A stretch of DNA of 60,938 bases, filler included, from 6 parts of 6 records of this genome joined end to end with filler, not necessarily neighbours in it, one strand, 5' to 3'. Numbered from the whole stretch's first letter, positions 196-60,938 are shown. Numbers and translations: made by a program. Notes: a model not told the origin generated them from the sequence alone.

Positions 196-2946
196 ATGAC
201 AGATGAAACACTCCCCCCCGAGAGCAGCGAAACACCAGCTCCCACATCCTCCGCCTATGACGGCCCGGCGATCAGCATTACGCAGGAGATGAAAACCTCC
301 TATCTTGACTATGCCATGAGCGTGATTGTCAGCCGTGCAATCCCGGATCTGCGCGATGGTCTCAAGCCCGTGCACCGCCGGATTCTCTATGCGATGCATG
401 AAACCAATAACACCCATGACAAGCCCTACCGAAAATCCTCGCGGCCGGTCGCGGAAGCGATGGGGAAATACCACCCCCATGGGGACGGCGCAATCTATGA
501 TGCTTTGGTGCGCATGGCGCAGGACTTCTCAATGTCCTTGGTGCTGTTGGACGGGCAAGGCAATTTTGGCTCCATGGATGGCGATAAGGCCGCGGCCTAT
601 CGCTACACAGAAGTGCGTATGGAAAAATCGGCGCAAGCGCTCTTGGCCGATATCGACAAAGATACAGTTGATTTTCAGCTCAATTATGATGGCAAAGATA
701 CGGAGCCCACAGTTCTGCCGGCCCGCTATCCCAATATGCTGGTCAACGGCGCTGGCGGCATTGCCGTGGGCATGGCCACCAATATCCCCCCCCACAACCT
801 GGGCGAAGTGGTTGATGCGACATTGGCCTTGATTGAAGATCCGGATCTGACCTCAGAGCAGCTGATCGACTATATCCCCGGGCCGGATTTTCCCACAGGC
901 GGCGTGATGCTGGGCCGCTCAGGCGCCCGCAAGGCCTATCTCGAAGGTCGCGGCAGCGTGATCAACCGGGCCAAAACCCGCTTTGAAGAGCTGCGCAAAG
1001 ATCGTTGGGCCATCATCATTGAAGAGATCCCCTATCAGGTCAACAAAGCGGCAATGATCGAGAAAATTGCAGCCGAAGTGCGTGATAAACGCATTGAAGG
1101 CGTGGCCCATGTGCAAGATGAATCAGATCGTAATGGCGTGCGTGTGGTGGTTGAGCTGAAACGCGATGCCACGGCGGAAGTGGTGTTGAACCAATTGTTC
1201 CGCTACACGCCGATGCAGACCTCCTTTGGCTGTAATATGCTGGCCCTGAATGGCGGGCGGCCCGAACAGCTCACACTGCGGCGCTTTTTGACCTGCTTTA
1301 TCGATTTCCGCGAGGAAGTCGTGGCACGCCGGACGGCCTTTGAGCTGCGCAAGGCGCGCGAGAGGAGCCATGTGTTATGCGGGCTTGCGGTGGCGGTGAG
1401 CAATGTGGATGAAATTGTTGCGACCATTCGCGCCTCAAGCGATGCCGCAGAGGCACGTCTGAAATTAATGGAGCGGCGCTGGCCGGCGGCGGAAATTTCC
1501 GATTATATCCGCCTGATTGACGATCCAACCCATACGATGAACGACGATGGCACCTACAATCTATCAGAAACGCAGGCGCGGGCCATTTTGGAGCTGCGTT
1601 TGCAGCGGTTGACACAAATCGGCGTCAAAGAGGTCACCGACGAGCTGGCTGTTCTGGCCGCGAAGATCAAAGAGTATCTTGAAATTCTGTCGTCTCGCGA
1701 GCGGATCATGGGGATCATTTCCGATGAGCTGCGCGAGGTTAAAGACAATTTCGCCGTTCCGCGCCGCACCGAGATCATTGAATGGTCCGGTGATATGATC
1801 GACGAAGATTTGATTGAGCGCGAGGAAATGGTCGTCACAGTCACCGCCGGCGGCTATATCAAACGCACGGCCTTGGCCGATTTCCGGGCGCAAAAGCGCG
1901 GCGGCAAGGGGCTGCAGGGCATGTCGACCAAAGATGAAGATGTGGTCACCACACTCTTTGTGGCCAATACCCATACCCAGCTGTTGTTTTTCACAACCGA
2001 TGGTATGGCCTATAAGATGAAGACCTGGCGGCTGCCGCTCGGAGGGCGCACGGCCAAGGGCAAGGCGATTGTCAATATCTTGCCCATTCCGACCGGCGTC
2101 TCTGTGGCTGCGATCATGCCGGTTGACCGTGATGAAGCCGAATGGGGCGATTTGCAAATCGTCTTTGCAACTACACAAGGCGATGTACGCCGCAACCGCC
2201 TGTCTGACTTCACCAATGTGCGCTCAAATGGCAAGATCGCCATGAAATTGCCCGAAGGGGTGGAGTTGGTCAACGCGCGGATCTGCAGCGAAAATGATGA
2301 TGTTATGCTCACCACCAACAGTGGCCGAGCCATTCGCTTTGCCTCGACCGATCTGCGGGTGATGAACTCTCGCGCCTCAACCGGTGTGCGCGGTATTCGT
2401 CTCACTGGCGACGATATGGTCGTCTCCATGTCCGTTATTCGCCATTTTGAAGCCACACCCGAAGAGCGCGCCGCCTATCTGAAGATGCGCCGCGCTCTGG
2501 CGGGCGTGACAGATGAGGAGGCCGGTGAGGACGATGTTCCTGCCGATCCGAACTTCTCGCAAGAACGCTATGAGGAAATGGCGGCGGTTGAAAATCTGAT
2601 CCTGACCATTACCCGTGGCGGCTCTGGCAAGCTGTCGTCCAGCCATGATTACCCGGTGCGCGGGCGCGGCGGGATGGGCGTGGCCGCGATGGATAAGGCG
2701 ATGCGCGGCGGTCCAGTGGTCGCCAGCTTCCCGGTAAAGCTTGTCGATCAAATCATGCTGGTGACAAGCACAGGTCAATCAATCCGCTGCCCCATTGACG
2801 GCATTTCCTTCCGCTCCCGCAATGCTGGCGGTGTGCGGGTGTTCAATACAAGCCGCGATGAGCAAGTGGTCAGCGTCGCCTATATCCCAGATCAAGGCGA
2901 CGGCGAAGATACGCCCGAGGAAAGCACTTCCGAGGCCGCCTCTTAA
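196..2946 (+). CDS. gyrA: DNA gyrase subunit A
   Basis: [33 protein letters not shown], catalytic RYTE and GyrA-box QKRGGKG; 916 aa. Confidence 0.98.
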
Positions 2947-2953
2947 ACGACAT

Positions 2954-2987
2954 ATGTGACCGTGCAGGCAATTCTGCGCGGTCACAT
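2954..2987 (+). terminator. Stem-loop just after the gyrA stop (probable terminator or stabiliser)
   Basis: ATGTGACCGTGCAG-GCAATT-CTGCGCGGTCACAT, a 14-bp stem with one G.U pair; only a weak, displaced T-tract. Confidence 0.55.
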
Positions 2988-3103
2988 CGGCATTTTACGA
3001 AACTCATATATAAAAACTTTTTTATATACATAGGTGTATATATACCTATACGGCAAAACCACCCGCATAGCCCTACTCGGACTCGCACTCTTCTTCCGAT
3101 TGC

Positions 3104-3119
3104 GTTAACGTAAAGTTAA
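3104..3119 (-). promoter_or_regulatory. Putative CtrA binding box
   Basis: Minus strand reads TTAA-CTTTACG-TTAAC, an exact match to TTAA-N7-TTAAC; intergenic; chpT lies on the same contig. Confidence 0.6.
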
Positions 3120-3254
3120 TAAATGTCGCGCGCCTCGGATCTAATGAGTGTTTAGCACCAAGTCGCAAGTAACGAGTTCATTGTGGCACCAAAGTGATTC
3201 AATTCGGCCCTTCGACGTAGCTGATTGATTATAAATTATAAAGTTATGTGCAGC

Positions 3255-3385
3255 TGCGGCGATTGTGGTGTTTGGAGGCTTCTCCAAGCATAATACGAGT
3301 GAGGGGATGCAACGGCGGCATCATGTTTGATCTGCCTTAGCATTGCATAAAGCACGGTCTCTTGGGTGAGGGACCGTGCTTTTTA
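3255..3385 (+). ncRNA. Candidate structured small RNA (three hairpins ending in an intrinsic terminator); 5' end uncertain
   Basis: Stems at about 3263-3298, 3307-3348 and 3349-3382 plus a T-run; the stem mispairs read as G.U on the + strand; no long ORF. Confidence 0.45.
3349..3384 (+). terminator. Rho-independent terminator (possibly bidirectional)
   Basis: AAAGCACGGTCTCTT-GGGT-GAGGGACCGTGCTTT followed by TT; 15-bp stem with 2 G.U pairs on the + strand. Confidence 0.8.
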
Positions 3386-3395
3386 ATTTGCCGCA

Positions 3396-4877
3396 TTACA
3401 AGCTAAGGTCGTAAAGATCTGAAAATTTATCCTGCAGATAGGCCAGTAAAGGCGCTTCACTCGGCACCGCGCCACAGGCCAGCGTGATGGTCTCACGCGG
3501 CAAGTTCAACGCTCCATGACGCTGCAAGCTCTCCTTCAGCCAGGCCGTCGCCTTACTCAAATCTCCAACCCGAAGCTGATCGTCCAAATCAGGATTAAGC
3601 GCCGTCATCCGCTCAAAAAGGCAGCCTGCGTAGACATTGCCAAGCGAATAGGTTGGGAAATATCCAAACAACCCCACAGACCAATGGACATCTTGCAAAC
3701 ACCCCTGCGAGGCACGCGGCACCTCATATCCAAAATCAGCCGCAAAGCGATCATTCCAAGCGCTCTGCAAATCTTGCACTTGCAAATCGCCCGCAATCAT
3801 CGCGCGCTCCAGATCAAAGCGCAGCAACACATGCAAATTATATTGCACCTCATCGGCCTCAGTGCGGATGAAACCATTGCGCACCGAATTTACCGCTTTG
3901 TAAAATTCATCCGCGCTTTCAATGCCAAAATCACCAAAGCCCGCGCGCATTTTTGCAAAGAGAAACTCGGTAAAGGCGCGGCTGCGGCCCAATTGGTTTT
4001 CATAGATCCGCGACTGGCTTTCATGAACGCCCATGGAGGCACCCTGCCCTATGGCCGTCAGCGTATACTCTGGATCAACATTTTGCTCGTAACAGCCATG
4101 CCCCACCTCATGAATGGTGGAATAAAAGCAATTGAACGGATCGCTGGGGTCCGTGCGCGTGGTGATCCGAACATCCTGCCCTGATCCGGAGGAGAAGGGA
4201 TGCACCGCCTTATCAATCCGCCCACAGTTCAAATCATAGCCAAAACACTGCGCCAATTCACTGGCGATCTGCAATTGCACAGTCTCATCAAAAAACCCTT
4301 GCAGTGATTTCGCCGGGGGTTTTTCTAATATCTCACCACGCAGAGCCACCAATCCGGGGCGCAGTGCCCCAAACATCTGGTCGAGCTCAGAGGCTGTCGT
4401 GCCCGGCTCATAATCGGCCAACATGGCATCATAGACGTCCCCGCCGGCCGCCAGCGCCTGCCCTTCTTCGCGTTTGAGCGCCAAAACCTCCTGCAAAACA
4501 GGAGCGAAAGCTGCAAAATCATCCTCCGCGCGTGCCGCTGCCCATTTGCCCTGCGCCATTGAGGTTGTGCTGGCGATGGCCTCTGCCAAATCGCCCGGCA
4601 CTTTCACCGCGCGCTCATAAGCGGTTTTAATCTCACGCAGCTGCGCCTGGGTCACCCGGTCAAAGGCTTGCCCGTCACAAGCCGCCAACCAATCGCCTAC
4701 GCGCGGATCTGACCTGCGCGCATGCAGCACCCCTTCGAGCGCGGCCATCTCTTCGCCGCGTTGCGCAGATGACCCGCTGGGCATCATCGTTTCTTGATCC
4801 CATCCCAAACGACCTGAAACCTGACCCAATGCCTGTGTTTGGCGATCAAAATGTAGAAGTTCCGTTAAAGCCGTCAT
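3396..4877 (-). CDS. Carboxypeptidase M32 (Taq-type)
   Basis: HPF, DVRITTR, HEVGH, HESQS, IRTEADE, GCLQDVHW and GYFPTY motifs; start moved to ATG 4877, which overlaps the ctaA stop (ATGA). Confidence 0.95.
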   Translation of the reverse strand: MTALTELLHFDRQTQALGQVSGRLGWDQETMMPSGSSAQRGEEMAALEGVLHARRSDPRVGDWLAACDGQAFDRVTQAQLREIKTAYERAVKVPGDLAEAIASTTSMAQGKWAAARAEDDFAAFAPVLQEVLALKREEGQALAAGGDVYDAMLADYEPGTTASELDQMFGALRPGLVALRGEILEKPPAKSLQGFFDETVQLQIASELAQCFGYDLNCGRIDKAVHPFSSGSGQDVRITTRTDPSDPFNCFYSTIHEVGHGCYEQNVDPEYTLTAIGQGASMGVHESQSRIYENQLGRSRAFTEFLFAKMRAGFGDFGIESADEFYKAVNSVRNGFIRTEADEVQYNLHVLLRFDLERAMIAGDLQVQDLQSAWNDRFAADFGYEVPRASQGCLQDVHWSVGLFGYFPTYSLGNVYAGCLFERMTALNPDLDDQLRVGDLSKATAWLKESLQRHGALNLPRETITLACGAVPSEAPLLAYLQDKFSDLYDLSL

Positions 4878-6016
4878 GAGGTCCCCCGAACAGAAGTGGC
4901 AATCGGATAGCCGGCCAAAAATCGCCCTCGAAGCACCGCAAGCCACAGAAGCACTGCGGTAAACTGGTGCAAAATAGCCAGATTCCAAGGAGATGAATGC
5001 ATCACCGTTACGATACCTAAGATCATCTGAACCGTCAAAACAAGCCCCACAGTGCCAAAGGCGGCGCGGGTCACCTTATGGGCAGAGGCCTTGGCCCGCA
5101 AAGCCACCACAATGGCGAAGGCAAATAAGAGATAGGCGCTCATCCGATGAATAAACTGCACCAAGCCATCGTCCTCAAAGAAATTCCGCCACCAAGGCGA
5201 CAGGCTGAACATATCGGGAGGTAAAAACCCACCAGCCATCAGTGGCCAATCGGTGTAATTGCGCCCAGCATCAATCCCAGCAACCAAGGCGCCCAGCAGC
5301 ACTTGCAGCGCCACGAAATGCACCAAGCCGGTGGACATGCCAAACAGCTTGCGCTCCCGCGCGCGGCGTGCCTGCAGCAACTCCGCCTCAGAGCGGGAAA
5401 ATATCTGCAAACTCCAGTAAATATATCCCAAAAGCGCAAAAGCCGCCCCGAGATGCGCCATAAGCCAATAGGAGGCCACATCAAGCCGCACACCATCCAG
5501 ACCCGAATGAACCATCAGCCAGCCGATGAACCCTTGCAGGCCGATAAAAGGTCCAATGGCAAAGAGAGACAGGCGCCGGGCCTTGGGCAATTTGCCCGTG
5601 AAAAACAACAGCGCGAACCCAAGTGCCCAGGTCAGACCAATGAAACGCCCAAGCTGCCGGTGGCCCCATTCCCACCAAAAGATAACTTTGAATTCCGCCA
5701 AGCTCATAGCAGCATTTTGCACAGCAAATTCAGCGGTGGTTTGATAGGCGGCAAAGGCGGCCTGCCAGGCAGCGGCGCTCAAAGGCGGGATGGCACCCAT
5801 AACCGGGTCCCATTCGGTGATCGACAGGCCACTGTCCGTCAGGCGTGTTAATCCGCCCACGGTGATCATCACAATGATCAAACCGACCAAGCTCCACAAC
5901 CAAAGGCGCACCCAATGCCGATCTCCACTCCCGGCGCGCGCGATGGCACCCGCACTGGCGCTTGTGATCTTTGTATCGCTGCCAACCTCTTCAAAGATAT
6001 TTCGCTTATTCGCCAT
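4874..6016 (-). CDS. ctaA: Heme A synthase (COX15/CtaA type 2)
   Basis: GGLTRLTDSGLSITEW, EWGHR, AHL, QFIHR and LHQ; multiple TM helices. Confidence 0.95.
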   Translation of the reverse strand: MANKRNIFEEVGSDTKITSASAGAIARAGSGDRHWVRLWLWSLVGLIIVMITVGGLTRLTDSGLSITEWDPVMGAIPPLSAAAWQAAFAAYQTTAEFAVQNAAMSLAEFKVIFWWEWGHRQLGRFIGLTWALGFALLFFTGKLPKARRLSLFAIGPFIGLQGFIGWLMVHSGLDGVRLDVASYWLMAHLGAAFALLGYIYWSLQIFSRSEAELLQARRARERKLFGMSTGLVHFVALQVLLGALVAGIDAGRNYTDWPLMAGGFLPPDMFSLSPWWRNFFEDDGLVQFIHRMSAYLLFAFAIVVALRAKASAHKVTRAAFGTVGLVLTVQMILGIVTVMHSSPWNLAILHQFTAVLLWLAVLRGRFLAGYPIATSVRGTS

Positions 6017-15547: not shown

Positions 15548-15647
15548 NNNNNNNNNNNNNNNNNNNNNNNNNNNNNNNNNNNNNNNNNNNNTTAATTAAT
15601 TAANNNNNNNNNNNNNNNNNNNNNNNNNNNNNNNNNNNNNNNNNNNN
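15548..15647. other. Artificial contig linker
   Basis: N44-TTAATTAATTAA-N44, with truncated genes on both sides. Confidence 0.98.
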
Positions 15648-28233: not shown

Positions 28234-28333
28234 NNNNNNNNNNNNNNNNNNNNNNNNNNNNNNNNNNNNNNNNNNNNTTAATTAATTAANNNNNNNNNNN
28301 NNNNNNNNNNNNNNNNNNNNNNNNNNNNNNNNN
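28234..28333. other. Artificial contig linker
   Basis: N44-TTAATTAATTAA-N44. Confidence 0.98.
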
Positions 28334-35766: not shown

Positions 35767-35866
35767 NNNNNNNNNNNNNNNNNNNNNNNNNNNNNNNNNN
35801 NNNNNNNNNNTTAATTAATTAANNNNNNNNNNNNNNNNNNNNNNNNNNNNNNNNNNNNNNNNNNNN
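35767..35866. other. Artificial contig linker
   Basis: N44-TTAATTAATTAA-N44. Confidence 0.98.
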
Positions 35867-49539: not shown

Positions 49540-49639
49540 NNNNNNNNNNNNNNNNNNNNNNNNNNNNNNNNNNNNNNNNNNNNTTAATTAATTAANNNNN
49601 NNNNNNNNNNNNNNNNNNNNNNNNNNNNNNNNNNNNNNN
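49540..49639. other. Artificial contig linker
   Basis: N44-TTAATTAATTAA-N44. Confidence 0.98.
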
Positions 49640-50757: not shown

Positions 50758-51898
50758 AACTCAGCTTTCGTACAAAAGAATTTTTAATAGGCTTTGTAAT
50801 ATCCAAAAATGATAGCGCAAATCCCCTAACTTTTTTTAAACCTACTAGATCACTTGAAAAACCATTAACAAGTATTTCAGTAAAGTCTAGTATCTTTCTC
50901 TGTTCACCTGATCTTGATTTTTTATATCCATCGAGTATTGATTGCAAATCTTTATCGTCATTAAATTTTTTAATTGCCTTGTTTAATTTGTATGCATCTT
51001 TAAAACCGGTGTTTAGTCCCTGTCCCGCTACAGGGTGCATAGTCTGTGATGCATTACCAAGAGCCACAATATTTGGATGTAATACTGAAACACTTGAATG
51101 TTTTAAGTGGAATGAAATTCTTTTCTCGCACTCTTTGAAATTTCCAACACGATCCCCAAAGCTTTTATGCAGTTGGATTAAAAAACTTTTTTCATTCAAA
51201 TTGGCAAGTTTATCTATATGTTCATTTGGGCCAGTCCATACCAATGAAAATTTATTATTTTTATTTGGCAATAATGCGATCGGGCCCTCATCGGTAAATC
51301 TTTCGTAGGCAGTATTTTGATGCGGTAATTCTGTAGACACTTTTGTAACAATTGCAGAATGATTAAGAGGTTTTATTTTTTTTTGAAGCTCCAACCCTTC
51401 AATTTTATCATTAGCGCCATCTGCCAAAATAACTAAATTGCTTTGAAAAACTTTTGTTTCATTTTTATTTTGAAGTGATAAATGAATCAAACTCTTATCA
51501 TCGAAACATTTTGTTACTTTTGTTTCATAAATAACCTCAACATTATTTAATTTTTCTATTTTTTCGATGAGAGTTTTCATTAGATCTCCATAAGACACAA
51601 TGAATCCTAAGGATTTTTCATTAAATTCTTTTGCCTCTAATAAAGTTCTACCAAAAGAATTTACTTGACTGGTATGTATTCTATTAATGTTAGTAATATT
51701 TTTTTTTAATTTCTCCCAAACTCCAATTTCCTCCAAAATTAGTCTGCTACCATTTGAAAGAGCCAATGCTCGGCTATCTTGGTAAAGAGCATTACTTTTT
51801 TTAGCCTCAAATATTTGAATTTTATTTTGATTTGAATGGTTTAATATTGCAAATACAAGTCCAACTGGCCCTCCCCCAATTACAGCACAATCAATCAT
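50747..51898 (-). CDS. ubiH: UbiH-type ubiquinone biosynthesis hydroxylase
   Basis: GGGPVG, AYERFT.EGPIALLP and GNASQTMHPVAGQG motifs; follows pepP. Confidence 0.82.
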   Translation of the reverse strand: MIDCAVIGGGPVGLVFAILNHSNQNKIQIFEAKKSNALYQDSRALALSNGSRLILEEIGVWEKLKKNITNINRIHTSQVNSFGRTLLEAKEFNEKSLGFIVSYGDLMKTLIEKIEKLNNVEVIYETKVTKCFDDKSLIHLSLQNKNETKVFQSNLVILADGANDKIEGLELQKKIKPLNHSAIVTKVSTELPHQNTAYERFTDEGPIALLPNKNNKFSLVWTGPNEHIDKLANLNEKSFLIQLHKSFGDRVGNFKECEKRISFHLKHSSVSVLHPNIVALGNASQTMHPVAGQGLNTGFKDAYKLNKAIKKFNDDKDLQSILDGYKKSRSGEQRKILDFTEILVNGFSSDLVGLKKVRGFALSFLDITKPIKNSFVRKLSYGE

Positions 51899-53183
51899 TT
51901 AATGTTCCAATAATAGCTTCAAGCTCGCCGATCTCCTTTGGTGCATTTTTACTCAAAACATCATAGCCATTTGATGTGACTAGGACATCATCCTCTATTC
52001 TCACTCCGATACCCCAAAATTCTTTTGGTACTTCACTTGATGGCCTAATATAACAGCCAGGTTCAATGGTGAGCACGTTACCCTTGCTTAACCTAACAGC
52101 CGTTTTTTTCTTGGTATTTGTAATATATTTTCCCACATCATGTACGTCTAAGCCAAGCCAATGACTTGTTCTATGCATAAAGAATTTCTTATATAACTCT
52201 TTTTCATAAATTTCGTCCTTTGAACCCTTTAAAAAATCTAAGTCTATCAATCCATTAACAATAATCTTCAATGCTTCCTTGTGTGGGTCGTCAAAAAAAT
52301 TATCTTCTTTTACTTTTTCAATGGCAGCTTTTTGTGCCAAAAGAACTAATTGATAAATTTCTTTTTGTGCTGAAGAAAATTTCCCATTAACTGGGTAAGT
52401 TCTTGTGATATCTGAAGCATAGCTTTCAAGCTCGCAACCAGCATCTATTAGCAGTAAATCTCCATCTTTAAGCTTCGAATTGTTCTCTATATAGTGCAAA
52501 GTACAACTATTTATGCCGGATGCTACAATTGATGAGTAGGCTGGATTGCGGGCATTATTTTTAAAGAATTGATTTAAAATTTCACCTTCAATTTCATACT
52601 CATACTTATCTGCTTTGGTATATTTCATTGCATGTATATGGGCATTTGCTGCAATGTTTGCGGACTTCCTCATTATATTTACTTCATAATTATTTTTAAT
52701 AACCCTCATACCATCAATGATTTCTGATAAATCTTTTCTTTGTTTATCATTCTCTCTAAACCACTTTGAGGTCAAGAATGGGATTCCAGATTTTTTTTCA
52801 GTTAACGATAATAAAAATATTTTCTTACCTTTTATTATTTTAGGAAGAAGATTATGGAATTCAGACAATGCATATCCCTCATCAAATAAGAAATCTTCAC
52901 AAGCCTTTGATGGACCATGGATATATCCATTCCAAATTTCTTTAATTTCATCTTTGGGCTGGCAAAAAATGACCGATTTAGGTTTTTTACCCCCGATAAC
53001 AACCATAATTGAATCTGGCTCTGGGAATGCTGAGAGATAATGAAAATAACTATCTGAACGGAATGGATAATGACAATCTCTATTTCTGATAGCCTCTTTT
53101 GAGTTCATTAAAATAGCAACTCCATCGCCTAAAAAACTTGAAAGCTTTTCTCTCCTATTTTTGAATTCTTTAAAATCTAACAT
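51891..53183 (-). CDS. pepP: Xaa-Pro aminopeptidase
   Basis: DAGCE, SDITRT, HWLGLDVHD, EPG and RIEDD motifs. Confidence 0.95.
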   Translation of the reverse strand: MLDFKEFKNRREKLSSFLGDGVAILMNSKEAIRNRDCHYPFRSDSYFHYLSAFPEPDSIMVVIGGKKPKSVIFCQPKDEIKEIWNGYIHGPSKACEDFLFDEGYALSEFHNLLPKIIKGKKIFLLSLTEKKSGIPFLTSKWFRENDKQRKDLSEIIDGMRVIKNNYEVNIMRKSANIAANAHIHAMKYTKADKYEYEIEGEILNQFFKNNARNPAYSSIVASGINSCTLHYIENNSKLKDGDLLLIDAGCELESYASDITRTYPVNGKFSSAQKEIYQLVLLAQKAAIEKVKEDNFFDDPHKEALKIIVNGLIDLDFLKGSKDEIYEKELYKKFFMHRTSHWLGLDVHDVGKYITNTKKKTAVRLSKGNVLTIEPGCYIRPSSEVPKEFWGIGVRIEDDVLVTSNGYDVLSKNAPKEIGELEAIIGTLND

Positions 53184-53188
53184 TGCAT

Positions 53189-53857
53189 CTACTTACCTAA
53201 ATTAATTAATTTTAAACGCTCGGGTGTGCCAACATCTGACCATTTTCCTTCAAAAAATTCACCTTGAATCGAATTTTTATATATAGCATTTTTTAATATT
53301 GGTGATAATTTAATTTTTTTACCTTTTTCTAAGTCAAGAAATAACTTTGGGTCGTAAATTGCAATTCCTGAGAAAGTCAAAAGCTCATTGGCATTTATTG
53401 TTACAACTCCATCTTTTGATAAACCAAAGTCTCCTTTTAAATTGTGATCAGGGTTATTAACCAATACCAAATATGCAAGTGTTGTATTTTTAAAAATTAT
53501 ACTTTTTAGCTTCTGATAATCATAGTTTGAAAAAATATCAGCATTAATAACTACAAAAGGCTCACTCCCTAAATATGTAATTGCTTTTTTTATCCCTCCA
53601 GCAGTTTCTAATGCCACAGATTCGTTTGAAATAGTAATATTTAAATGCCACTTGGAGCCATCGCCAACATATTGAATAATCTTTTCTGATAAATATGAAA
53701 CATTGATAACAATATCCCTAAAACCAGCCTCGCTTAATTTATGGAGATGCCAATCAATTAAACATTTTCCTTTCACTTTGAGTAAAGGTTTAGGGCTATC
53801 TTGGGTAAGGCTTCCCATCCTATTTCCCCTTCCAGCTGCCAGAATCATTGCTTTCAT
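53189..53857 (-). CDS. murU: N-acetylmuramate alpha-1-phosphate uridylyltransferase
   Basis: MKAMILAAGRG, LETAGGI and WSDVGTPERL motifs; coupled to amgK. Confidence 0.9.
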   Translation of the reverse strand: MKAMILAAGRGNRMGSLTQDSPKPLLKVKGKCLIDWHLHKLSEAGFRDIVINVSYLSEKIIQYVGDGSKWHLNITISNESVALETAGGIKKAITYLGSEPFVVINADIFSNYDYQKLKSIIFKNTTLAYLVLVNNPDHNLKGDFGLSKDGVVTINANELLTFSGIAIYDPKLFLDLEKGKKIKLSPILKNAIYKNSIQGEFFEGKWSDVGTPERLKLINLGK

Positions 53858-54828
53858 TTGATTACCTTATCCAAAAAATTTCTTAGCTGATGAAAATCGC
53901 TATACCTTTCCGTCGCATTCATTAAATATTTTTCAACTAATGGAATATTTTCAAGATATTGATTTTTTTTATCTCTAATTGAAAGTCTTGCAAATATTCC
54001 TAAAACCTTCAGATGTCTTTGAATACCCATACACTCAAAGTCTTTATAAAAATCTGGGAACTCATAGTTATTAATAAGCTGACTAGTCTTCGCTTTTTCC
54101 CAATACCTAACCGCATGGTCTAGAATAATTTCCTCATCCCATTCAATATAAGCATCCTTCAGGAGCGAGACAAGATCATAAGTTATAGGGCCATCTAAAG
54201 CATCCTGAAAATCAAGGATTCCTGGGTTTTTTGATTCTAAGATCATTAAATTTCTACTATGAAAATCTCGATGAACAAAAAATTTTTCTTGACTGAAAAC
54301 TTTTATACTTATTTCTTCAAACCAAGACAATAATTCTCCATGCTCTTTTTTGTTTAAATCATATGATTTATATTTTTTTAAATACCATTCAATAAATAAA
54401 TCCATTTCATCGATAAGTATTTTTTTTGAATAACTTTGGCATAGACCTCTTTTTATATTTTTCTGCATTTTAATCAACGAGTTAATTGCATCAGTATATA
54501 AAGCTGTTTGATTATCATTATTTAAAACATCCAAATAAGTCTTATTACCAAAATCCTTCATCAAAATAAATCCTAAAGATTTATCAACCTCATATATTTC
54601 TGGGACATTCACCCCAACTATGCTGAGTAATTTCCCAATTTTTAAAAATGACTCGATTGATTCATTTTGGGGAGGTGCATCCATAACGATGAAGCTACTA
54701 TCTTGGGCTTTTACTCTAAAATATCTTCTAAAGCTTGCATCACTGGAGGCAGGTGAAAATAAAAAATCAATTTTCAATTTTTTTGAGAGCCAATCTTTTA
54801 ATAAATCTTTTCTTTTCTGACTGTCCAA
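53854..54828 (-). CDS. amgK: MurNAc/GlcNAc anomeric kinase (APH family)
   Basis: DASFRRYFR, MDAPP, HRDFHSRNLM and QRHLKVLGIFARL motifs. Confidence 0.9.
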   Translation of the reverse strand: MDSQKRKDLLKDWLSKKLKIDFLFSPASSDASFRRYFRVKAQDSSFIVMDAPPQNESIESFLKIGKLLSIVGVNVPEIYEVDKSLGFILMKDFGNKTYLDVLNNDNQTALYTDAINSLIKMQKNIKRGLCQSYSKKILIDEMDLFIEWYLKKYKSYDLNKKEHGELLSWFEEISIKVFSQEKFFVHRDFHSRNLMILESKNPGILDFQDALDGPITYDLVSLLKDAYIEWDEEIILDHAVRYWEKAKTSQLINNYEFPDFYKDFECMGIQRHLKVLGIFARLSIRDKKNQYLENIPLVEKYLMNATERYSDFHQLRNFLDKVIK

Positions 54829-54885: not shown

Positions 54886-54985
54886 NNNNNNNNNNNNNNN
54901 NNNNNNNNNNNNNNNNNNNNNNNNNNNNNTTAATTAATTAANNNNNNNNNNNNNNNNNNNNNNNNNNNNNNNNNNNNNNNNNNNN
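54886..54985. other. Artificial contig linker
   Basis: N44-TTAATTAATTAA-N44. Confidence 0.98.
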
Positions 54986-55219
54986 ATGATCAATAAATAA
55001 ATTTTTTCCAATCTTTGCACCAGGGTGAATTTCAATTCCTGTAAAAAATCTTGATGTTTGAGATATAATTCTTGCAATTAAATCAAACCCAGCGACTTGA
55101 AAGAAATTTGCTATTCTATGAAAAAAAACTGCTTTTACTCCAGGATAAGTTAAAATTACACTTAAAATAGACTTTGCTGCTGGATCTCTTGCTCTAATTG
55201 AGTCTAAATATTCGTTCAT
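54986..55219 (-). CDS. cysE: Serine O-acetyltransferase (3'-truncated)
   Basis: RDPAA, YPG and [16 protein letters not shown] motifs. Confidence 0.93.
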
Positions 55220-55260: not shown

Positions 55261-55914
55261 TTATTTTTTCTGATTTTGAACAATAAACAATTTTCTTGGA
55301 AAATTGCCTTCATTAAATCTATCTATTTTAATATTAATAAAACCAACTAATAACTCTTCAATTTTTTTTTTTGAAAAAAAATTAATTATGAATCCATCAT
55401 TTTGATAAGATTCGTCTTCGATATGTAAACCATTTTTATAATCACCATCCTCAAAATTTCTAACCGTATAAATGTTAACTCCTCCTTTTACTAAGACTCT
55501 AAGAATTTCACTATTTAAATTTTGAACCTCTAAATTTTTTAAAGACATACAATATAACATATGTGAAAATATTCCTTGAATTGAATTATTTTTAAAAGGC
55601 AATTTTTTTCTCACATCAAAAACTTTTGTAGAGACAAATTCTGAAAGATTGAGTTCTTTAACTTTTTTTTTAATACTCGTAACTGCTGTTTTGCTATAAT
55701 CTAAAGCTTCAACTTTAATATTGTTTTTAGCAAAAAAAATTGTATCTCTTCCAAGACCTGCACCTAATTCTACAATGCTAGATATATTTTTTTTTTTAAA
55801 AATCTTTAAGGCTTCTTCTGCAGCAAAGCTTGGTGCTAAGCCAAACATTTTGGGTTTATTTGCGTAATTAATTTCCCAGTACTCTTCTTGGTTGTTTAAA
55901 TTTATATTTTTCAA
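55261..55914 (-). CDS. Class I SAM-dependent methyltransferase
   Basis: Motif [16 protein letters not shown] and LPF; TTG start. Confidence 0.85.
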
Positions 55915-55987: not shown

Positions 55988-56683
55988 ATGATTTTTAATC
56001 AACTATTTGATGAAAAGTCTTCAACGTACACTTACATAATTTCTTCCGGAAAAGGTAGGGAAGCCCTAATTATTGATCCTGTAATTGAACATACACAACA
56101 TTATATAAAAATTTTAAAAGATTTAGATTTAAAATTAGTCAAAGTCATTGATACACATATACATGCTGATCATATCTCAGGATTAAATGAACTTAATGAA
56201 AGGACGAACTGTGCAAGGATTATGGGTGAAGGATCCGAGTCTGAAGTGATTGATATTAAAGTTAAAGATAATGAAAAAATAAAAATAGAGTCAATTGAAC
56301 TTAAAACTATCTATACACCTGGCCACACTAAATGTTCTTATTCATATTTGATGAATGGCAAAGTGTTTACAGGTGATACTTTGCTAATTAATGGAACAGG
56401 AAGAACTGATTTTCAAGGCGGTAGTGCAAAAGAACAATATAATTCTATATTTGGAAAATTATTTAAATTACCCGAAGAAACATTGGTTTACCCTGCTCAT
56501 GATTACAATGGTAAAAAATTTTCATCAATAGGAGATGAAAAGAAAAAAAACCCAAGGTTACAAGTTAGCTCTTCCGATGAATATGAAGAGATTATGAATA
56601 ATCTTAATTTAGCTAATCCAAAAATGATGGATGTAGCTGTTCCTGCAAATAAAAAAGGGCTGACTTTAAAAGAGGTCAATTAA
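55988..56683 (+). CDS. Persulfide dioxygenase (ETHE1-like, MBL fold)
   Basis: SSTYTY, IDPV, THIHADH, TPGHT, GRTDFQ, YPAHDY and NPRL motifs. Confidence 0.9.
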   Translation: MIFNQLFDEKSSTYTYIISSGKGREALIIDPVIEHTQHYIKILKDLDLKLVKVIDTHIHADHISGLNELNERTNCARIMGEGSESEVIDIKVKDNEKIKIESIELKTIYTPGHTKCSYSYLMNGKVFTGDTLLINGTGRTDFQGGSAKEQYNSIFGKLFKLPEETLVYPAHDYNGKKFSSIGDEKKKNPRLQVSSSDEYEEIMNNLNLANPKMMDVAVPANKKGLTLKEVN

Positions 56684-56785
56684 ATTTAACTTAGGCTATT
56701 GATTTATACTGCTTAAAATACACCTTTAAAATGATTTACTTAAACTAAATACTGTAGTCTAATATTAGCAATAACAAAGGGGGCT

Positions 56786-57697
56786 TTGATGAGAAAAATA
56801 ATAGTAACACTAATTTTTTTCTTTTTTGTTTCTTCAGCGAACGCTGCAGAACCATTAGTAGAAAGTAGTTGGTTAAAAAAAAATATTAACAATTCAAACG
56901 TATTTATCCTAGACATTAGAAATAAGTTAGATGGTGGTGGATACGATGCTTTTAAGGCAGGACATATACCTGGGTCAGTTCACTCTGATTATTTAGCAGC
57001 TGGATGGAGAACAACTATAAAAGGTGTAGTTGGTCAATTTCCAGGGACAAAGACTTTGAGTAGTTTAATTGGAGGTCTTGGAATAGATAATAGTAAACAT
57101 GTTGTTATTGTTTATGGGGGCGTAAGCTCTTTAGATTTTGGAAGTGCTGCAAGAGTTTATTGGACTTTTAAAACTATAGGTCATGAAAGCGTTTCTATTT
57201 TAAATGGGGGTTTTAAAGGCTGGACTAATGGTGGAAATAAAGTAGCCACAGGTGAAAATTCTATCACTCCAGCAAGTTTTAAAACTAAATTAAATAAAAA
57301 ATACTTTGCTTCTTTCAGTGAAGTGCAAAAAGCTCAAAAAGGTAAGGGGCAACAATGTTTAATTGATGCTAGACCTGCTGCATTTTTTACTGGAGATAAA
57401 AAACACGCTAAAGCACGAATTCCTGGAAGACTTGCTAACGCTAGGAATCTTCAAGAAGGAAATTTAATTGATGATAGTTTCAAAATGAAACCAAGTTCAG
57501 CAATTAAATCACAGTTCGGAGGTCTCGATGGTGTTGAACAGTATAAAGGTTATATAAGTTACTGTAATACTGGTCATTGGGCTGCTACAGTTTGGTTTGG
57601 TTTAAGTGAGATTGCACAAATACCAAATGTAAAAATGTATGACGGTGGAATGACACATTGGACTTCTAATCCAAAAAGAAAAGTTGATTTAGGTTAA
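56786..57697 (+). CDS. Exported tandem-domain rhodanese (sulfurtransferase)
   Basis: Signal peptide ending ANA, GHIPGS, AARVYW, ILNGG, active loop CNTGHWA and YDGG motifs. Confidence 0.9.
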   Translation: MMRKIIVTLIFFFFVSSANAAEPLVESSWLKKNINNSNVFILDIRNKLDGGGYDAFKAGHIPGSVHSDYLAAGWRTTIKGVVGQFPGTKTLSSLIGGLGIDNSKHVVIVYGGVSSLDFGSAARVYWTFKTIGHESVSILNGGFKGWTNGGNKVATGENSITPASFKTKLNKKYFASFSEVQKAQKGKGQQCLIDARPAAFFTGDKKHAKARIPGRLANARNLQEGNLIDDSFKMKPSSAIKSQFGGLDGVEQYKGYISYCNTGHWAATVWFGLSEIAQIPNVKMYDGGMTHWTSNPKRKVDLG

Positions 57698-57704
57698 ATT
57701 TAAA

Positions 57705-57736
57705 AATTATGGGTAGAATTTATTCTACCCATAATT
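57705..57736 (+). terminator. Perfect 15-bp inverted repeat between the rhodanese and yeeE genes
   Basis: AATTATGGGTAGAAT-TT-ATTCTACCCATAATT followed by ACTTTT. Confidence 0.65.
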
Positions 57737-57746
57737 ACTTTTATAT

Positions 57747-58931
57747 ATGGCTGAATTAAATTTAAGAGACATACCAAGAATTGAAATAGATAAACCTGTA
57801 TTAACATACGGGATTATATTCTCAATTTTATTTTCTTATATTCTTTATACCGGTGTTGGTGACAGGCATTTATATGTTTTTCTAATTGGACTTGGACTAG
57901 GAATTTCTTTATTCCAAGCTGCATTTGGTTTCACTGGTGGATGGCGAAATTTTATTGAAAAAAGAGACAGTAAATCCCTAAGAGCACAAATTATAATGTT
58001 AGCGTTAGCTGTATTAATTTTTTCTTTTTTTATTAATTCAAAGAGTTTTTTTTATGATGGAACTATGATTGGTGCGATTGCTCCTGTTGGAGTTTCCGTT
58101 CTAGTTGGATCTTTTATTTTTGGTTTTGCAATGCAACTAGGTGGAGGTTGTGGTTCCGGAACTTTATTTACTGCAGGAAGTGGAAATATAAAAATGGTTA
58201 TAACATTAATCTTTTTTATTATTGGTTCTTTAATAGGATCTTATCATTTTGAATTTTGGACAAATTTACCATCGTTTAAACCAATATCATTACTCAATAA
58301 TTTTTCAAAAATTAATACCATTGTAATTCAATTGTCTGCATTGGGATTAATATATTATTTAATTTCAAAGATGGAGTTTAATAGAAATAATAAAATCAAC
58401 CATAATGATATCATTTCCAATCCATCACACAGTTTAATAAGAGGTCCTTGGCCGCTTTTGTGGGGATCCATTTCATTAGTTTTTTTTAGTTTTTTAATGT
58501 TGCAAGTTGCAGGACACCCTTGGTCTGTAACGTTTGCATTTGGTTTATGGGGTGCAAAGATAGCAAGTTTTTTAGGTGTAGAAGTTTCTTCTTGGACTTA
58601 TTGGCAGTTAGAATACCCAAGCACCGCTCTAGAAAATAGTGTTTTAGCAGACCCAACAACTGTATCTAACATTGGAATTATTTTAGGAGCTTTAATTGGT
58701 TCAGCTCTATCAGGCAAAATTACAAAATTTACATCGGTAAATAAAAAATTAGTCCTCGCTGCTGTAATAGGAGGTTTGTTCATGGGTTATGGAGCAAGAT
58801 TAGCTTTTGGTTGTAACATTGGAGCTCTATTTGGTGGCATTGCATCTGGAAGTTTGCATGGTTGGGTTTGGTTTTTATTTGCCTTTTTAGGTTCTATCGT
58901 TGGGGTAAAATTTAGGAGATATTTTTACTAA
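57747..58931 (+). CDS. YeeE/YedE family sulfur-compound transporter
   Basis: GGGCGSG and AFGCNIG motifs, two Sulf_transp-like halves, about 9 TM helices. Confidence 0.9.
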   Translation: MAELNLRDIPRIEIDKPVLTYGIIFSILFSYILYTGVGDRHLYVFLIGLGLGISLFQAAFGFTGGWRNFIEKRDSKSLRAQIIMLALAVLIFSFFINSKSFFYDGTMIGAIAPVGVSVLVGSFIFGFAMQLGGGCGSGTLFTAGSGNIKMVITLIFFIIGSLIGSYHFEFWTNLPSFKPISLLNNFSKINTIVIQLSALGLIYYLISKMEFNRNNKINHNDIISNPSHSLIRGPWPLLWGSISLVFFSFLMLQVAGHPWSVTFAFGLWGAKIASFLGVEVSSWTYWQLEYPSTALENSVLADPTTVSNIGIILGALIGSALSGKITKFTSVNKKLVLAAVIGGLFMGYGARLAFGCNIGALFGGIASGSLHGWVWFLFAFLGSIVGVKFRRYFY

Positions 58932-59101
58932 TGAAAAAAATTTATTTTATTGTAGTTACACTTTTTTTTGCAATACTAATTTTAGAACATGATAATATGG
59001 GAGTAGCCTATAACCCGTTATTTCACATTGAAGGTGGTGATTCTGATAATGCAATATCTATGCCGTGTGGTCTAGGTGGCAGTCATAATCACAAACATTA
59101 A
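58931..59101 (+). CDS. Unannotated 56-aa membrane-anchored/exported protein with a Cys and a His-rich tail
   Basis: MKKIYFIVVTLFFAILILEHDNMGVAYNPLFHIEGGDSDNAISMPCGLGGSHNHKH; ATG overlaps the yeeE stop (TAATG) and the ORF fills the gap exactly. Confidence 0.65.
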   Translation: MKKIYFIVVTLFFAILILEHDNMGVAYNPLFHIEGGDSDNAISMPCGLGGSHNHKH

Positions 59102-60938
59102 ATTTTAAGTCTTTTCATTTCAGGATCAAGTAATGGCTCATTTGTAACTTTGACTGGATATCTTTTACCAAAATAATCTATTTCTAATTTTGTACCTACT
59201 TTTGAATGAGACGACGGTAAATACCCATATAAAATATGTTTATCTACAAAATAACCATAATTTGTACTTGTTATGTAGCCAACTGGTTTACTGCTTTCAT
59301 CGTAAATTGGTTCTTTACCAAGTGCCATTCCTTCGCTGTCTTCCATAACCATACAGCATAATTTTTGTTTAAGAGGTTCTTGTTTTAATTTAGCTAAAGC
59401 TTCTTTGCCTATAAAATCTTGTTCCTTTTTTAATTTAACAGTAAAACCTAATCCTGCTTCATATGGATTTGAGTTGGTGTGAATGTCTGTTCCCAAAGAT
59501 CTATACCCTTTTTCAAGTCTGAGAGACTCAAAGGCTCCAGCTCCAGAACAGATCATATTAAATTCTTGAGACTTTTCTTTTATCTCATCCCAAAGTGTTA
59601 AACCATATTCAGTTGGTGTATAAATTTCCCAACCTAGTTCTCCAATATATGAAATTCTTACTGCAATGCATGGAAGATGGCTTATTGATAAATTTTTTAT
59701 TGAAAAGAAAGGAAATCCTTCATTAGAAACATCGTCATCATCACATAAACTCTCTAAAACTTTTCTTGAATTAGGTCCCCATAAACCAACACCAGCATAA
59801 GCTGAAGTCCAATCAATAATATTTACGCTACCATCTTTTGGTGCATTTTCTTTAAACCAAGATAAATCTATCATTCCATTACCTGCACCTGCCAATATCC
59901 AAAACTTATCTTCTTCTAATCTACTAACTGTTAAATCACTTTTAATTCCACCGTAGATATTTGAAATGACTGTATAAACAACTTTACCCACCTTAACGTC
60001 TATATTGTTAGTACATACCTTTTGTAATAATGCTAAAGCACCTTTACCGCTAACCTCTATTTTTACAAATCCGGTAATATCAAAAAGTGCTCCGGTTTGT
60101 CTTGTTGTCATGTGCTCTACTGCTTGAATTGGTGACCAGTATTTTGCCGACCACCCTGTTCTATTTGGAAAATTTTTTCCTTGTAGTAAATCTTTATTAG
60201 CCTCGTACCACTGTGGTCTTTCCCAGCCCATAACTTCAAAAAATTTAGCTTTCTGGTCTCCAAGTCTAAAATAAAAAGGACTTCTTCTTAAAGGTCTTGG
60301 TTGTTCTATTTGTTGAAGAGGATGAATGATGTCATAAACTTCTTTATAGTTTTGTTTTCCTCTTGCTCTTAAATATTTTCTGACATGATGATGTTTATGA
60401 AAACGGTTTATATCTCCTTCACGTACATCAAGTTCTGGTTCACCGTTTACAATCCATTCGGCCATTGCTTTACCAACACCACCAGCATGAGTAATCCAAA
60501 CTGCATTTGCCGACCATAAACCTTTTATTGAAGTTTCACCCATCAGTGGGTTTCCATCATTAGTAAATGAAAAAATTCCATTAATTTTTTTAGTGATTTT
60601 CTTTTTTGCTAATGGTGGAAATAACCAATTAGTTTCTTTATGAGCGCCTACAAAATCTTCCGGACGAAAGTCTACTAAAGAAGGCATCTCCTCAGCATCC
60701 TCTGGTTTTACTAATTCTTCTGACTCTAGGATTCTTGGTTCATGACGATAGTTTCCTATGACATAAGTGTCATTCCATTGTCTAAAGTATAAACTATAGT
60801 CTTGATGTCTTACTAACGCGTGTTTAACTAACGCTTCTTTAATATCTGCTTTAAATTCTTTTAATTCTTCAAAAGGTTCTGTCCAAACCATCTGGTGTTC
60901 ACAAGGAACTAAAGGCAAAGAAATTCCTGCAAGTCTTC
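59098..60938 (-). CDS. Dimethylglycine oxidase-like FAD oxidoreductase/GcvT fusion (5' part outside the window)
   Basis: RHQD, GIFSFT.DG, AVWITHAGG, WERPQW, RISYIGELGWE and SLRLEKG motifs; frame open to the window end. Confidence 0.9.
   Translation of the reverse strand, partial: RLAGISLPLVPCEHQMVWTEPFEELKEFKADIKEALVKHALVRHQDYSLYFRQWNDTYVIGNYRHEPRILESEELVKPEDAEEMPSLVDFRPEDFVGAHKETNWLFPPLAKKKITKKINGIFSFTNDGNPLMGETSIKGLWSANAVWITHAGGVGKAMAEWIVNGEPELDVREGDINRFHKHHHVRKYLRARGKQNYKEVYDIIHPLQQIEQPRPLRRSPFYFRLGDQKAKFFEVMGWERPQWYEANKDLLQGKNFPNRTGWSAKYWSPIQAVEHMTTRQTGALFDITGFVKIEVSGKGALALLQKVCTNNIDVKVGKVVYTVISNIYGGIKSDLTVSRLEEDKFWILAGAGNGMIDLSWFKENAPKDGSVNIIDWTSAYAGVGLWGPNSRKVLESLCDDDDVSNEGFPFFSIKNLSISHLPCIAVRISYIGELGWEIYTPTEYGLTLWDEIKEKSQEFNMICSGAGAFESLRLEKGYRSLGTDIHTNSNPYEAGLGFTVKLKKEQDFIGKEALAKLKQEPLKQKLCCMVMEDSEGMALGKEPIYDESSKPVGYITSTNYGYFVDKHILYGYLPSSHSKVGTKLEIDYFGKRYPVKVTNEPLLDPEMKRLKI

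Follow-up and report, generated by a model that had tools for sequence, protein, structure and literature searches.

A rhodanese-YeeE-microprotein operon of SAR11-type bacteria as a candidate uptake system for sulfane sulfur

SAR11, a dominant bacterium of the ocean, cannot reduce sulfate and relies on organic forms of reduced sulfur such as methionine and dimethylsulfoniopropionate. The locus described here raises the question of whether some members of this group carry a system for taking up reduced sulfur in an inorganic form and, if so, which genes make it up. It lies in a stretch of DNA of 60,938 bases (the window), between positions 55988 and 59101, where four genes on the plus strand encode, in order, a type I (ETHE1-like) persulfide dioxygenase (PDO), a putatively exported two-domain rhodanese, a membrane protein of the YeeE/YedE family and a protein of only 56 amino acids, while a methyltransferase gene and the beginning of cysE are found on the minus strand. 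The list of open reading frames (ORFs) confirms the placement of the genes in an earlier note on this DNA, which had taken the four plus-strand genes to be a single sulfur module linked to cysE.

Here we propose that the conserved element of this locus is a trio, consisting of the rhodanese, YeeE and the 56-residue protein, and that it would bring sulfane (zero-valent) sulfur from the periplasm into the cytoplasm for use in biosynthesis. We consider this reading of the sequences moderately probable. Freshwater SAR11 are reported to draw sulfur from thiosulfate (Fernandes et al. 2025, as cited in PMC12817590), and a passage of PMC6018831 describes sulfurtransferase and sorAB as unevenly distributed in SAR11. 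Our literature search returned no description of the trio, and the freshwater report, which we know through the sentence that cites it, may already name these genes.

A trio of genes that stays together

Using the YeeE protein of the window to scan one genome per species, we obtained 26 related loci. Seventeen of these have Pelagibacter-type titles (16 so named, together with isolate HIMB114) and encode YeeE proteins that are 63-93% identical to that of the window, whereas the eight other bacterial loci reach just 35-44%. This difference bears out the earlier suggestion that the module sits in a SAR11-like contig and, together with the 74% identity between the PDO of the window and one encoded by the genome of locus L001 (a Pelagibacteraceae single-amplified genome), supports the SAR11 assignment; the placement covers the contig that holds the module, the window's other contigs being outside its scope. 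The remaining locus, L009, is a 1,000-bp contig binned with the metagenome-assembled genome of a Thalassarchaeaceae archaeon; its YeeE is 67% identical to that of the window, and in all likelihood the contig is a piece of SAR11 DNA that was binned wrongly.

The neighbours of YeeE were compared by searching all 26 loci with the window proteins in tblastn and by inspecting the ORFs that come after YeeE. A rhodanese gene is found immediately 5' of YeeE in all 15 Pelagibacterales-type loci with room upstream, and the small ORF follows immediately 3' in all 17 with room downstream, so that the same order is kept wherever a related locus has space for it and the arrangement is far beyond chance. The rhodanese-YeeE pair also occurs in four of the eight other bacterial loci, and in three of these four (L016, L017 and L021) the next gene after YeeE is a small ORF whose product has a helix at its N-terminus and a CAPCGAPC motif at its C-terminus. 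PDO, on the other hand, adjoins the module in just one of the 26 loci (L001, where it follows the small ORF), and counterparts of the window's cysE and methyltransferase genes were found beside the module in none. Since these three genes are thus local neighbours, it is the trio of rhodanese, YeeE and 56-residue protein that, judged by gene order, is the conserved unit and is read as one operon. The four-gene module with cysE proposed earlier holds as a conserved unit for the last three of its genes and not for PDO or cysE.

Within the trio of the window the rhodanese gene (56789-57697, plus strand) is separated by 49 nucleotides from the YeeE gene (57747-58931, plus strand), whose stop codon overlaps the start of the small ORF (58931-59101, plus strand) in an ATGA. 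The 49-nucleotide spacer contains a perfect 14-bp hairpin (57705-57736, plus strand), and a hairpin of 10-14 bp (-16.5 to -23.2 kcal/mol) is found in the window and in 11 of the 11 Pelagibacterales-type spacers that were folded, with stem sequences that differ between loci. In HIMB114-type loci the spacer hairpin is followed by a run of U. The hairpin is probably an intra-operon attenuator or a stabiliser of the mRNA, and its position after the rhodanese gene would fit a higher dose of the periplasmic component.

The module is rare in Pelagibacterales. Among 401 genomes, 18 have a YeeE match at E<=1e-10, and 14 of these are orthologs of 45-93% identity (among them two fragments and one that is divided between two frames), the remaining four genomes having only a paralog of 27-28% identity. 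The carriers include isolates titled HIMB114, HIMB109 and HIMB1517 and the complete-genome strain CODY6, and some of the carrier relatives may be freshwater lineages. The split ortholog (G223:C1:694835-695979) is read in two overlapping frames, covering residues 13-160 and 154-394, and is possibly a frameshift or a decaying copy. A second and distant YeeE-family gene (26-28% identical) is found in genome G004 at C1:142590-143696, and also in G165, G380, G341 and G027; in G004 it adjoins a CysK-like gene (141644-142540) and lies 2.5 kb from metY (138768-140039), and may be a separate sulfur importer.

YeeE, the rhodanese and the 56-residue protein

The YeeE-family protein has 394 amino acids and matches the Sulf_transp family (PF04143) with 223.7 bits, against a cut-off of 27, over profile positions 2-309 of 310. 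Its alignment with TsuA of Spirochaeta thermophila (8j4c/6leo) scores just 44 bits, and it lies far below the cut-offs of the TsuA models (NF041049, 41.6 against 645 bits; NF052577, 68.1 against 400) as well as below those of the YedE/FdhT selenium-transporter models (NF033796, 136.2 against 350; TIGR04112, 28.6 against 200). Two cysteines, C135 (GGCGSG) and C356 (FGCNIG), are invariant in 18 sequences and occupy the positions of Cys91 and Cys293 of TsuA, while none of the 18 has a cysteine in the aligned segment at the position of TsuA Cys22. The window protein also bears an extra N-terminal helix relative to TsuA, and in terms of sequence it is a distinct subfamily of YeeE/YedE. Cys91 and Cys293 are described in the relevant passage of PMC11582611 as the indispensable pair of TsuA, and the half-size proteins PmpA and PmpB, given there as zero-valent sulfur transporters, as carrying just these two. 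The arrangement of one cysteine in each half is thus the same, going by that description, although in SAR11 the halves are fused in one protein of 394 residues with added helices and with other gene partners.

The partners of YeeE were sought in five carrier relatives (genomes G002-G006, three of them single-contig), which stand in for the window's own genome in all our statements on gene content. The TusA/YeeD family (PF01206) was found in none of the five, compared with 10 of 14 control genomes, and SoxY was likewise found in none, compared with one of 14, which agrees with the earlier view of a module working without YeeD or Sox. With no TusB-like cytoplasmic partner and only two central cysteines, YeeE resembles a channel for sulfane sulfur or hydrosulfide more than it does a thiosulfate importer of the TsuA type.

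It is useful to set the trio against the systems that it most resembles. With TsuA-TsuB (YeeE-YeeD) of E. coli and S. thermophila it shares the Sulf_transp family, the equivalents of Cys91 and Cys293 and a proposed role in the biosynthetic import of inorganic reduced sulfur. It differs in lacking Cys22, in the extra helix, in scoring below the TsuA models and in having an exported rhodanese and a 56-residue membrane protein in place of a TusA-like partner. In Hyphomicrobium denitrificans, the YeeE-like SoxT1A and SoxT1B have been proposed (PMC11582611) to import sulfane sulfur that has been pre-processed on a periplasmic carrier, and soxT1A is there accompanied by a gene for another single-helix protein of 56 residues, Hden_0678. 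As described, the layout is alike in that a periplasmic carrier would precede import through a YeeE-like protein. However, the same description gives SoxT three conserved cysteines, the partners SoxYZ, SoxXA and SoxB, of which SoxY was looked for and not found in the five carriers, and a purpose in oxidation or signalling rather than assimilation; Hden_0678 has no cysteine, whereas the SAR11 protein has an invariant one within a PCG motif. By these comparisons the module belongs to neither the TsuA nor the Sox systems, as it falls short of the TsuA models and partner and Sox is absent.

The rhodanese most likely starts at the ATG at 56789, which is preceded by an AAGGGGG Shine-Dalgarno sequence, rather than at the TTG at 56786 given in the ORF list. 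It matches the Rhodanese family (PF00581) with 87.9 bits in two stretches, as a tandem-domain protein should. Its closest solved relatives are SseA (1urh, 1.6e-24, aligned over the whole length) and bovine rhodanese (1.7e-22), with YnjE at 4.6e-06, while the SseA model for 3-mercaptopyruvate sulfurtransferase (NF008557) gives 111.9 bits, which is below the cut-off of 250. The putative catalytic Cys259, counted from the ATG at 56789, lies in the C-terminal domain in a loop reading CNTGHWA, where the aligned SseA reads CGSGVTA. CNTG is invariant in all 17 aligned orthologs, and its cysteine is the single conserved one, within CNTG(H/W)(W/F)A.

The protein of the window begins with a signal peptide, MRKIIVTLIFFFFVSSANA|AEP (residues 1-19, cleavage at ANA|AEP). 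All 17 rhodaneses share this design: they open with M-(K/R/F/Y)-(K/T), and a small-x-small site comes between a hydrophobic core and the sequence (E/T/D/S/K)P(L/V)V. These signals were read by eye, from the positive n-region, the hydrophobic core and the small-x-small site. That the rhodanese carries an export signal, as had been proposed from the window alone, is thereby extended to every ortholog, and we regard it as a predicted Sec-exported protein that is a sulfurtransferase by family. Periplasmic rhodaneses and polysulfide-sulfur transferases are known in PspE and YnjE of E. coli and in Sud of Wolinella, which likewise are exported, have the rhodanese fold and use one catalytic cysteine. 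The SAR11 protein differs from them in its tandem-domain, SseA/TST-like build, closest to cytoplasmic SseA and bovine rhodanese, in having its own CNTG(H/W)(W/F)A loop and in its fixed linkage to the YeeE gene.

The 56-residue ORF, left uninterpreted before, turns out to be a conserved gene. Its product starts with MKK and continues with a helix, a GVAYNPLFH motif and an MPCGLGGSxNHKH motif, and 18 columns are invariant in 25 sequences (M1, K2, H20, G24, V25, Y27, N28, P29, L30, F31, H32, M44, P45, C46, G47, L48, G49 and H54). When the 16 codons of the motifs were compared in 13 genes, the varying positions were 15 third, three first and one second positions, and each gene differs from that of the window by 7-12 synonymous and 0-1 non-synonymous changes; this pattern of substitution marks the ORF as a genuine gene that is under purifying selection. 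Its product can be placed in no described family, with no match in Pfam or NCBIfam and just 17 unnamed clusters in a collection of 5.8 billion proteins, and a feature search of the Atlas returned unnamed clusters only, at 0.77, which is below the useful level. The positive-inside rule, applied to the lysines that precede the helix and the acidic residues that follow it, suggests a single-pass protein whose C-terminal 36 residues, including Cys46, would be periplasmic.

A complex of YeeE with the 56-residue protein was predicted with a score of 0.80, compared with 0.14 for the best of three controls. Of 78 solved complexes 51 attain that mark, as do two of 108 mismatched pairs. At least 44% of the contacts are common to the runs, with a predicted local distance difference test (pLDDT) score for the partner of at least 56. 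The confident contacts join the helix and GVAYNPLF motif of the small protein to the extra N-terminal helix of YeeE (residues 21-40) and to its conserved loop at 290-316. On the strength of this model, the 56-residue protein is most likely a bound subunit of YeeE.

An attractive idea is that Cys46 may ferry sulfur from the rhodanese to the pore. In its fullest form the system would be a covalent-relay importer, in which the rhodanese acts like a binding protein that catches nothing but the sulfane sulfur of thiosulfate or polysulfide, the 56-residue protein provides a SoxY-like cysteine arm (PCGLGG) and the two-cysteine YeeE to which it is bound forms the channel; we hold this form only tentatively and think it rather doubtful. 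Conversely, there may be no covalent relay at all: the small protein could bind a metal (copper or zinc) or be structural, or intact thiosulfate could be moved in the manner of TsuA while the rhodanese serves independently in cyanide or thiol-redox chemistry. Histidine, methionine and cysteine side chains are classic metal ligands, and His20, His32, Met44, Cys46 and His54 show no variation and His56 almost none; it is, moreover, the helix and GVAYNPLF, and not the cysteine tail, that are confidently placed at the interface. However, the counterparts outside SAR11 retain the helix and a PCG-type cysteine motif but not the histidines, the adjacency of rhodanese and YeeE is kept well beyond SAR11, and the carrier genomes offer neither a TusB-like acceptor that could split thiosulfate nor a sulfite reductase for the sulfonate sulfur. 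We therefore judge an arrangement without a relay to be improbable.

Assimilation, oxidation or selenium

The earlier note had proposed an assimilatory purpose served through CysE and cysteine; the purpose is supported by what follows and the link to CysE is not, since three of the five carrier genomes are without it. A CysE-type gene is present in the other two, with 217.7 bits and with 209 bits, just under the cut-off of 210.65 (control, eight of 14 over the cut-off), while a CysK-like protein occurs in all five below the cut-off (control, 14 of 14 matched and 11 over it). MetY is over its cut-off in all five (control, nine of 14). A sulfite/nitrite reductase domain (NIR_SIR) was found in none of the five, compared with 11 of 14 controls.

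Genes of methionine synthesis are also found next to the module itself. In six loci metF-metE and the gene for O-succinylhomoserine sulfhydrylase (metZ) come directly after the small ORF, and metY or metZ lies beside the module in two further loci. Scores for MetZ (TIGR01325) of 525.9 and 540.6, the latter in L005, exceed the cut-off of 510, and L004, whose YeeE is nearest to that of the window (93%), has 0.4 kb downstream a gene for an O-acetylhomoserine sulfhydrylase, MetY, scoring 540.8 against 495.1. In the window itself the neighbouring assimilatory gene is cysE. The recurrent metabolic tie is thus to direct sulfhydrylation of homoserine esters by MetZ or MetY and to metF-metE, that is, to homocysteine and methionine. 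A 1-Cys peroxiredoxin gene adjoins the module in eight loci and an EamA transporter gene in six.

There is evidence from regulation that points the same way. In L002, whose YeeE is 75% identical to that of the window, a full-length SAM-V riboswitch (RF01826; SAM, S-adenosylmethionine) was found with 58.4 bits against 41, over model positions 1-66; it includes an AAGGAG Shine-Dalgarno sequence and its 3' end lies two nucleotides before the ATG of the rhodanese. This locus has three SAM-V riboswitches in a span of 3.7 kb (687-751, 1886-1950 and 4272-4337), the other two lying a short way upstream and preceding a gene like those for homocysteine methyltransferase and a pair formed by a 140-residue ORF of no family and metZ. 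A weak SAM_alpha match in L005 (26.8 against 36 bits) was set aside, as it sits before metF and not before the module. In 11 loci the opposite strand upstream encodes an Lrp/AsnC regulator, either beside the rhodanese gene or with the peroxiredoxin gene between them. A promoter scan gave 24 sites, which is not above the mean of 21.0 in shuffled sequences, and was set aside.

Based on these observations we can outline how sulfane uptake by the trio might work. Firstly, the one catalytic cysteine of the exported rhodanese would accept the outer sulfur from a sulfane donor such as thiosulfate or polysulfide, with sulfite left outside the cell. Since the carriers have no sulfite reductase, only the sulfane atom would be useful to them, which is the very atom that a rhodanese takes off, and splitting thiosulfate outside would keep sulfite out of the cytoplasm. 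Secondly, the sulfur would enter the two-cysteine YeeE-like channel, possibly by way of Cys46 on the flexible periplasmic tail of the 56-residue protein. Finally, MetY or MetZ would fix it into homocysteine, and thence into methionine through MetE and MetF, or cysteine could also be made where CysE and CysK exist. In at least one lineage SAM may control the operon, in others perhaps an Lrp-type regulator. In the lineage of the window PDO (with aprBA in L001) would be an accessory that turns excess persulfide into sulfite and, further on, sulfate. What the substrate is, which way it moves, the relay and the fate of the sulfur are what we infer from these findings.

Several observations weigh against this outline. 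YeeE is remote from the characterised TsuA and lacks one of its three cysteines. The tail with Cys46 is outside the confidently placed interface residues, which leaves the Cys46 step of the relay without structural support, and in the complex tool's own test seven of 44 blind pairs from neighbouring genes also passed. An Rfam search of the module contig gave no match at E<=1 and thus no SAM riboswitch, nor was one found upstream of the rhodanese in L001, L003, L005, L011 or L014, so the riboswitch evidence comes from the single locus L002. In addition, the PDO here and in L001, the aprBA genes of L001 and the peroxiredoxin in eight loci would also fit oxidation or defence against stress.

The last of these points leads to another explanation, in which the genes would serve dissimilatory or detoxifying sulfur oxidation. 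Sulfide-derived sulfane sulfur or thiosulfate would be turned by PDO into sulfite and by AprBA/Sat into sulfate, for protection or extra energy, with YeeE carrying thiosulfate, sulfite or persulfide into or out of the cell, in the way of the BigR/Blh-type or SQR-PDO systems of heterotrophs. This would suit the ETHE1-like PDO gene, which is co-oriented and directly 5' of the trio in the window and directly 3' of the small ORF in L001, the aprB-aprA genes that diverge beside the L001 rhodanese and the adjacent peroxiredoxin, and oxidation of sulfite by SorAB, together with a sulfurtransferase, has been proposed for an LD12 isolate (PMC6018831). In L001, aprB-aprA (adenosine 5'-phosphosulfate reductase) and a 264-residue ORF of no family occupy 1725-4882 on the minus strand.

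The PDO of the window (55988-56683, plus strand) is clear in its identity. It aligns over its full length with the PDO of Myxococcus xanthus (4ysb; E 3.4e-67, 229 bits) and with human ETHE1 (4chl; 1.7e-52, 181 bits), nothing notable differing, whereas human glyoxalase II (1qh3) gives 61 bits, the GloB model (TIGR03413) 114.6 bits under a cut-off of 200.8, and Lactamase_B 66.8 bits. HxHxDH and GRTDFQ, which we take to be the motifs of this enzyme, are visible in the alignment with 4ysb. Orthologs of at least 65% identity are present in two of the five carrier genomes. The one in the genome of L002, 65% identical, is on a separate contig (G006:C36:19903-20583) in a frame of 343 residues, and because this is about 110 residues longer than the window protein it may carry an extra domain. 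PDOs are described as rare in SAR11 (PMC5702731), and here PDO is a variable neighbour outside the conserved core.

An oxidative role has to contend with this variability, PDO adjoining the module in one of 26 loci and having orthologs in two of five carriers, whereas the trio is constant. The SAM-V riboswitch of L002 and the neighbouring metF-metE-metZ, metY and metZ genes point to biosynthesis, SoxY is absent from the carriers, and the disposal of persulfide in the cytoplasm needs no exported rhodanese. Oxidation is, in our view, unlikely.

The methyltransferase gene invites another reading, namely uptake or detoxification of selenium or tellurium oxyanions by a YedE/FdhT-like channel, an ExtH-like periplasmic rhodanese and a TehB/MduS-like methyltransferase. 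This SAM-dependent enzyme (55261-55914, minus strand; Methyltransf_25, 2.9e-11) resembles the methyltransferase domain of MduS (NF045649), matching profile positions 5-214 of 338 with 212.4 bits, and more weakly TehB (27.1). The best NCBIfam match of YeeE is indeed to YedE/FdhT, at the 136.2 bits given above, and the rhodanese matches ExtH (62.3). All four scores, however, are far under their cut-offs, which are 350 for YedE/FdhT, 200 for ExtH, 380 for MduS and 219.5 for TehB. MduS is a protein with two selenocysteines, whereas the methyltransferase gene ends in TAA after the methyltransferase domain, so that there is no read-through to selenocysteine, and it is missing from all 26 related loci. 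Over-cut-off selD was found in none of the five carriers (control, two of 14), the TusA/YedF family is equally absent from them, and the SAM-V riboswitch and methionine genes argue for sulfur. A selenium or tellurium system is thus very improbable.

The contig and what the trio would mean for SAR11

The window is made up of six contigs, joined by five spacers (15548-15647, 28234-28333, 35767-35866, 49540-49639 and 54886-54985) that each consist of 44 N, ttaattaattaa and 44 N and act as linkers with stops in all frames. The guanine-plus-cytosine (GC) content of the contigs is about 0.55, 0.47, 0.34, 0.25, 0.30 and 0.30 (range 0.24-0.57), and because it differs so widely the assembly probably mixes several organisms. 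The sulfur module is confined to the last contig (54986-60938, GC about 0.3). The nearest genome compared, G001 (3.3 Mb), shares 34% of the words of the window and has no match with this contig.

At the left end of the module contig the cysE gene is cut by the contig end, which leaves its 5' part of 78 codons (54986-55219, minus strand); the fragment scores 84 bits with TIGR01172 (cut-off 210.65), being only 78 residues that match profile positions 3-78 of 162. The gene that diverges from PDO is the methyltransferase and not cysE, contrary to what had been supposed. At the right end a dimethylglycine dehydrogenase-like gene (59098-60936, minus strand; FAO_M, GCV_T and GCV_T_C), with its 5' end beyond the window, converges on the small ORF and overlaps it by four bases. 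It was considered as a taxonomic marker and dropped, because its matches are limited to paralogs of 31-33% identity, in G002 and G006, and it places nothing. The preceding contig encodes in series (51891-54828, minus strand) an aminopeptidase P-like protein (Peptidase_M24 and AMP_N), an NTP_transferase and an APH-family kinase, an arrangement that by its Pfam matches resembles the amgK-murU pair of cell-wall recycling.

At least half of the words of the module are present in 15 sequencing runs, and any part of it in 19 rows from 11 studies, which are mostly marine or seawater metagenomes. Contigs from three RNA libraries span 30, 30 and 27 of 30 bins of the module and bridge PDO to rhodanese, rhodanese to YeeE and YeeE to the small ORF. 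As DNA may be present in such libraries, and the contigs show neither strand nor level, this coverage is no more than a hint that the module is transcribed.

The idea of sulfane uptake by the trio is directly testable because carrier strains are in culture. If it is true, the module would mark which SAR11 populations, a minority of lineages, escape dependence on organic sulfur, and it would suggest a mechanism by which freshwater SAR11 use thiosulfate, as they are reported to do. Should the covalent relay also hold, SAR11 that have no sulfite reductase would be able to live on inorganic reduced sulfur with no sulfite admitted to the cell, and the principle would extend to some other marine Alphaproteobacteria with the CAPCGAPC version of the small protein. 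For the YeeE family, the proposal would add an unannotated microprotein subunit and an exported enzyme as partner.

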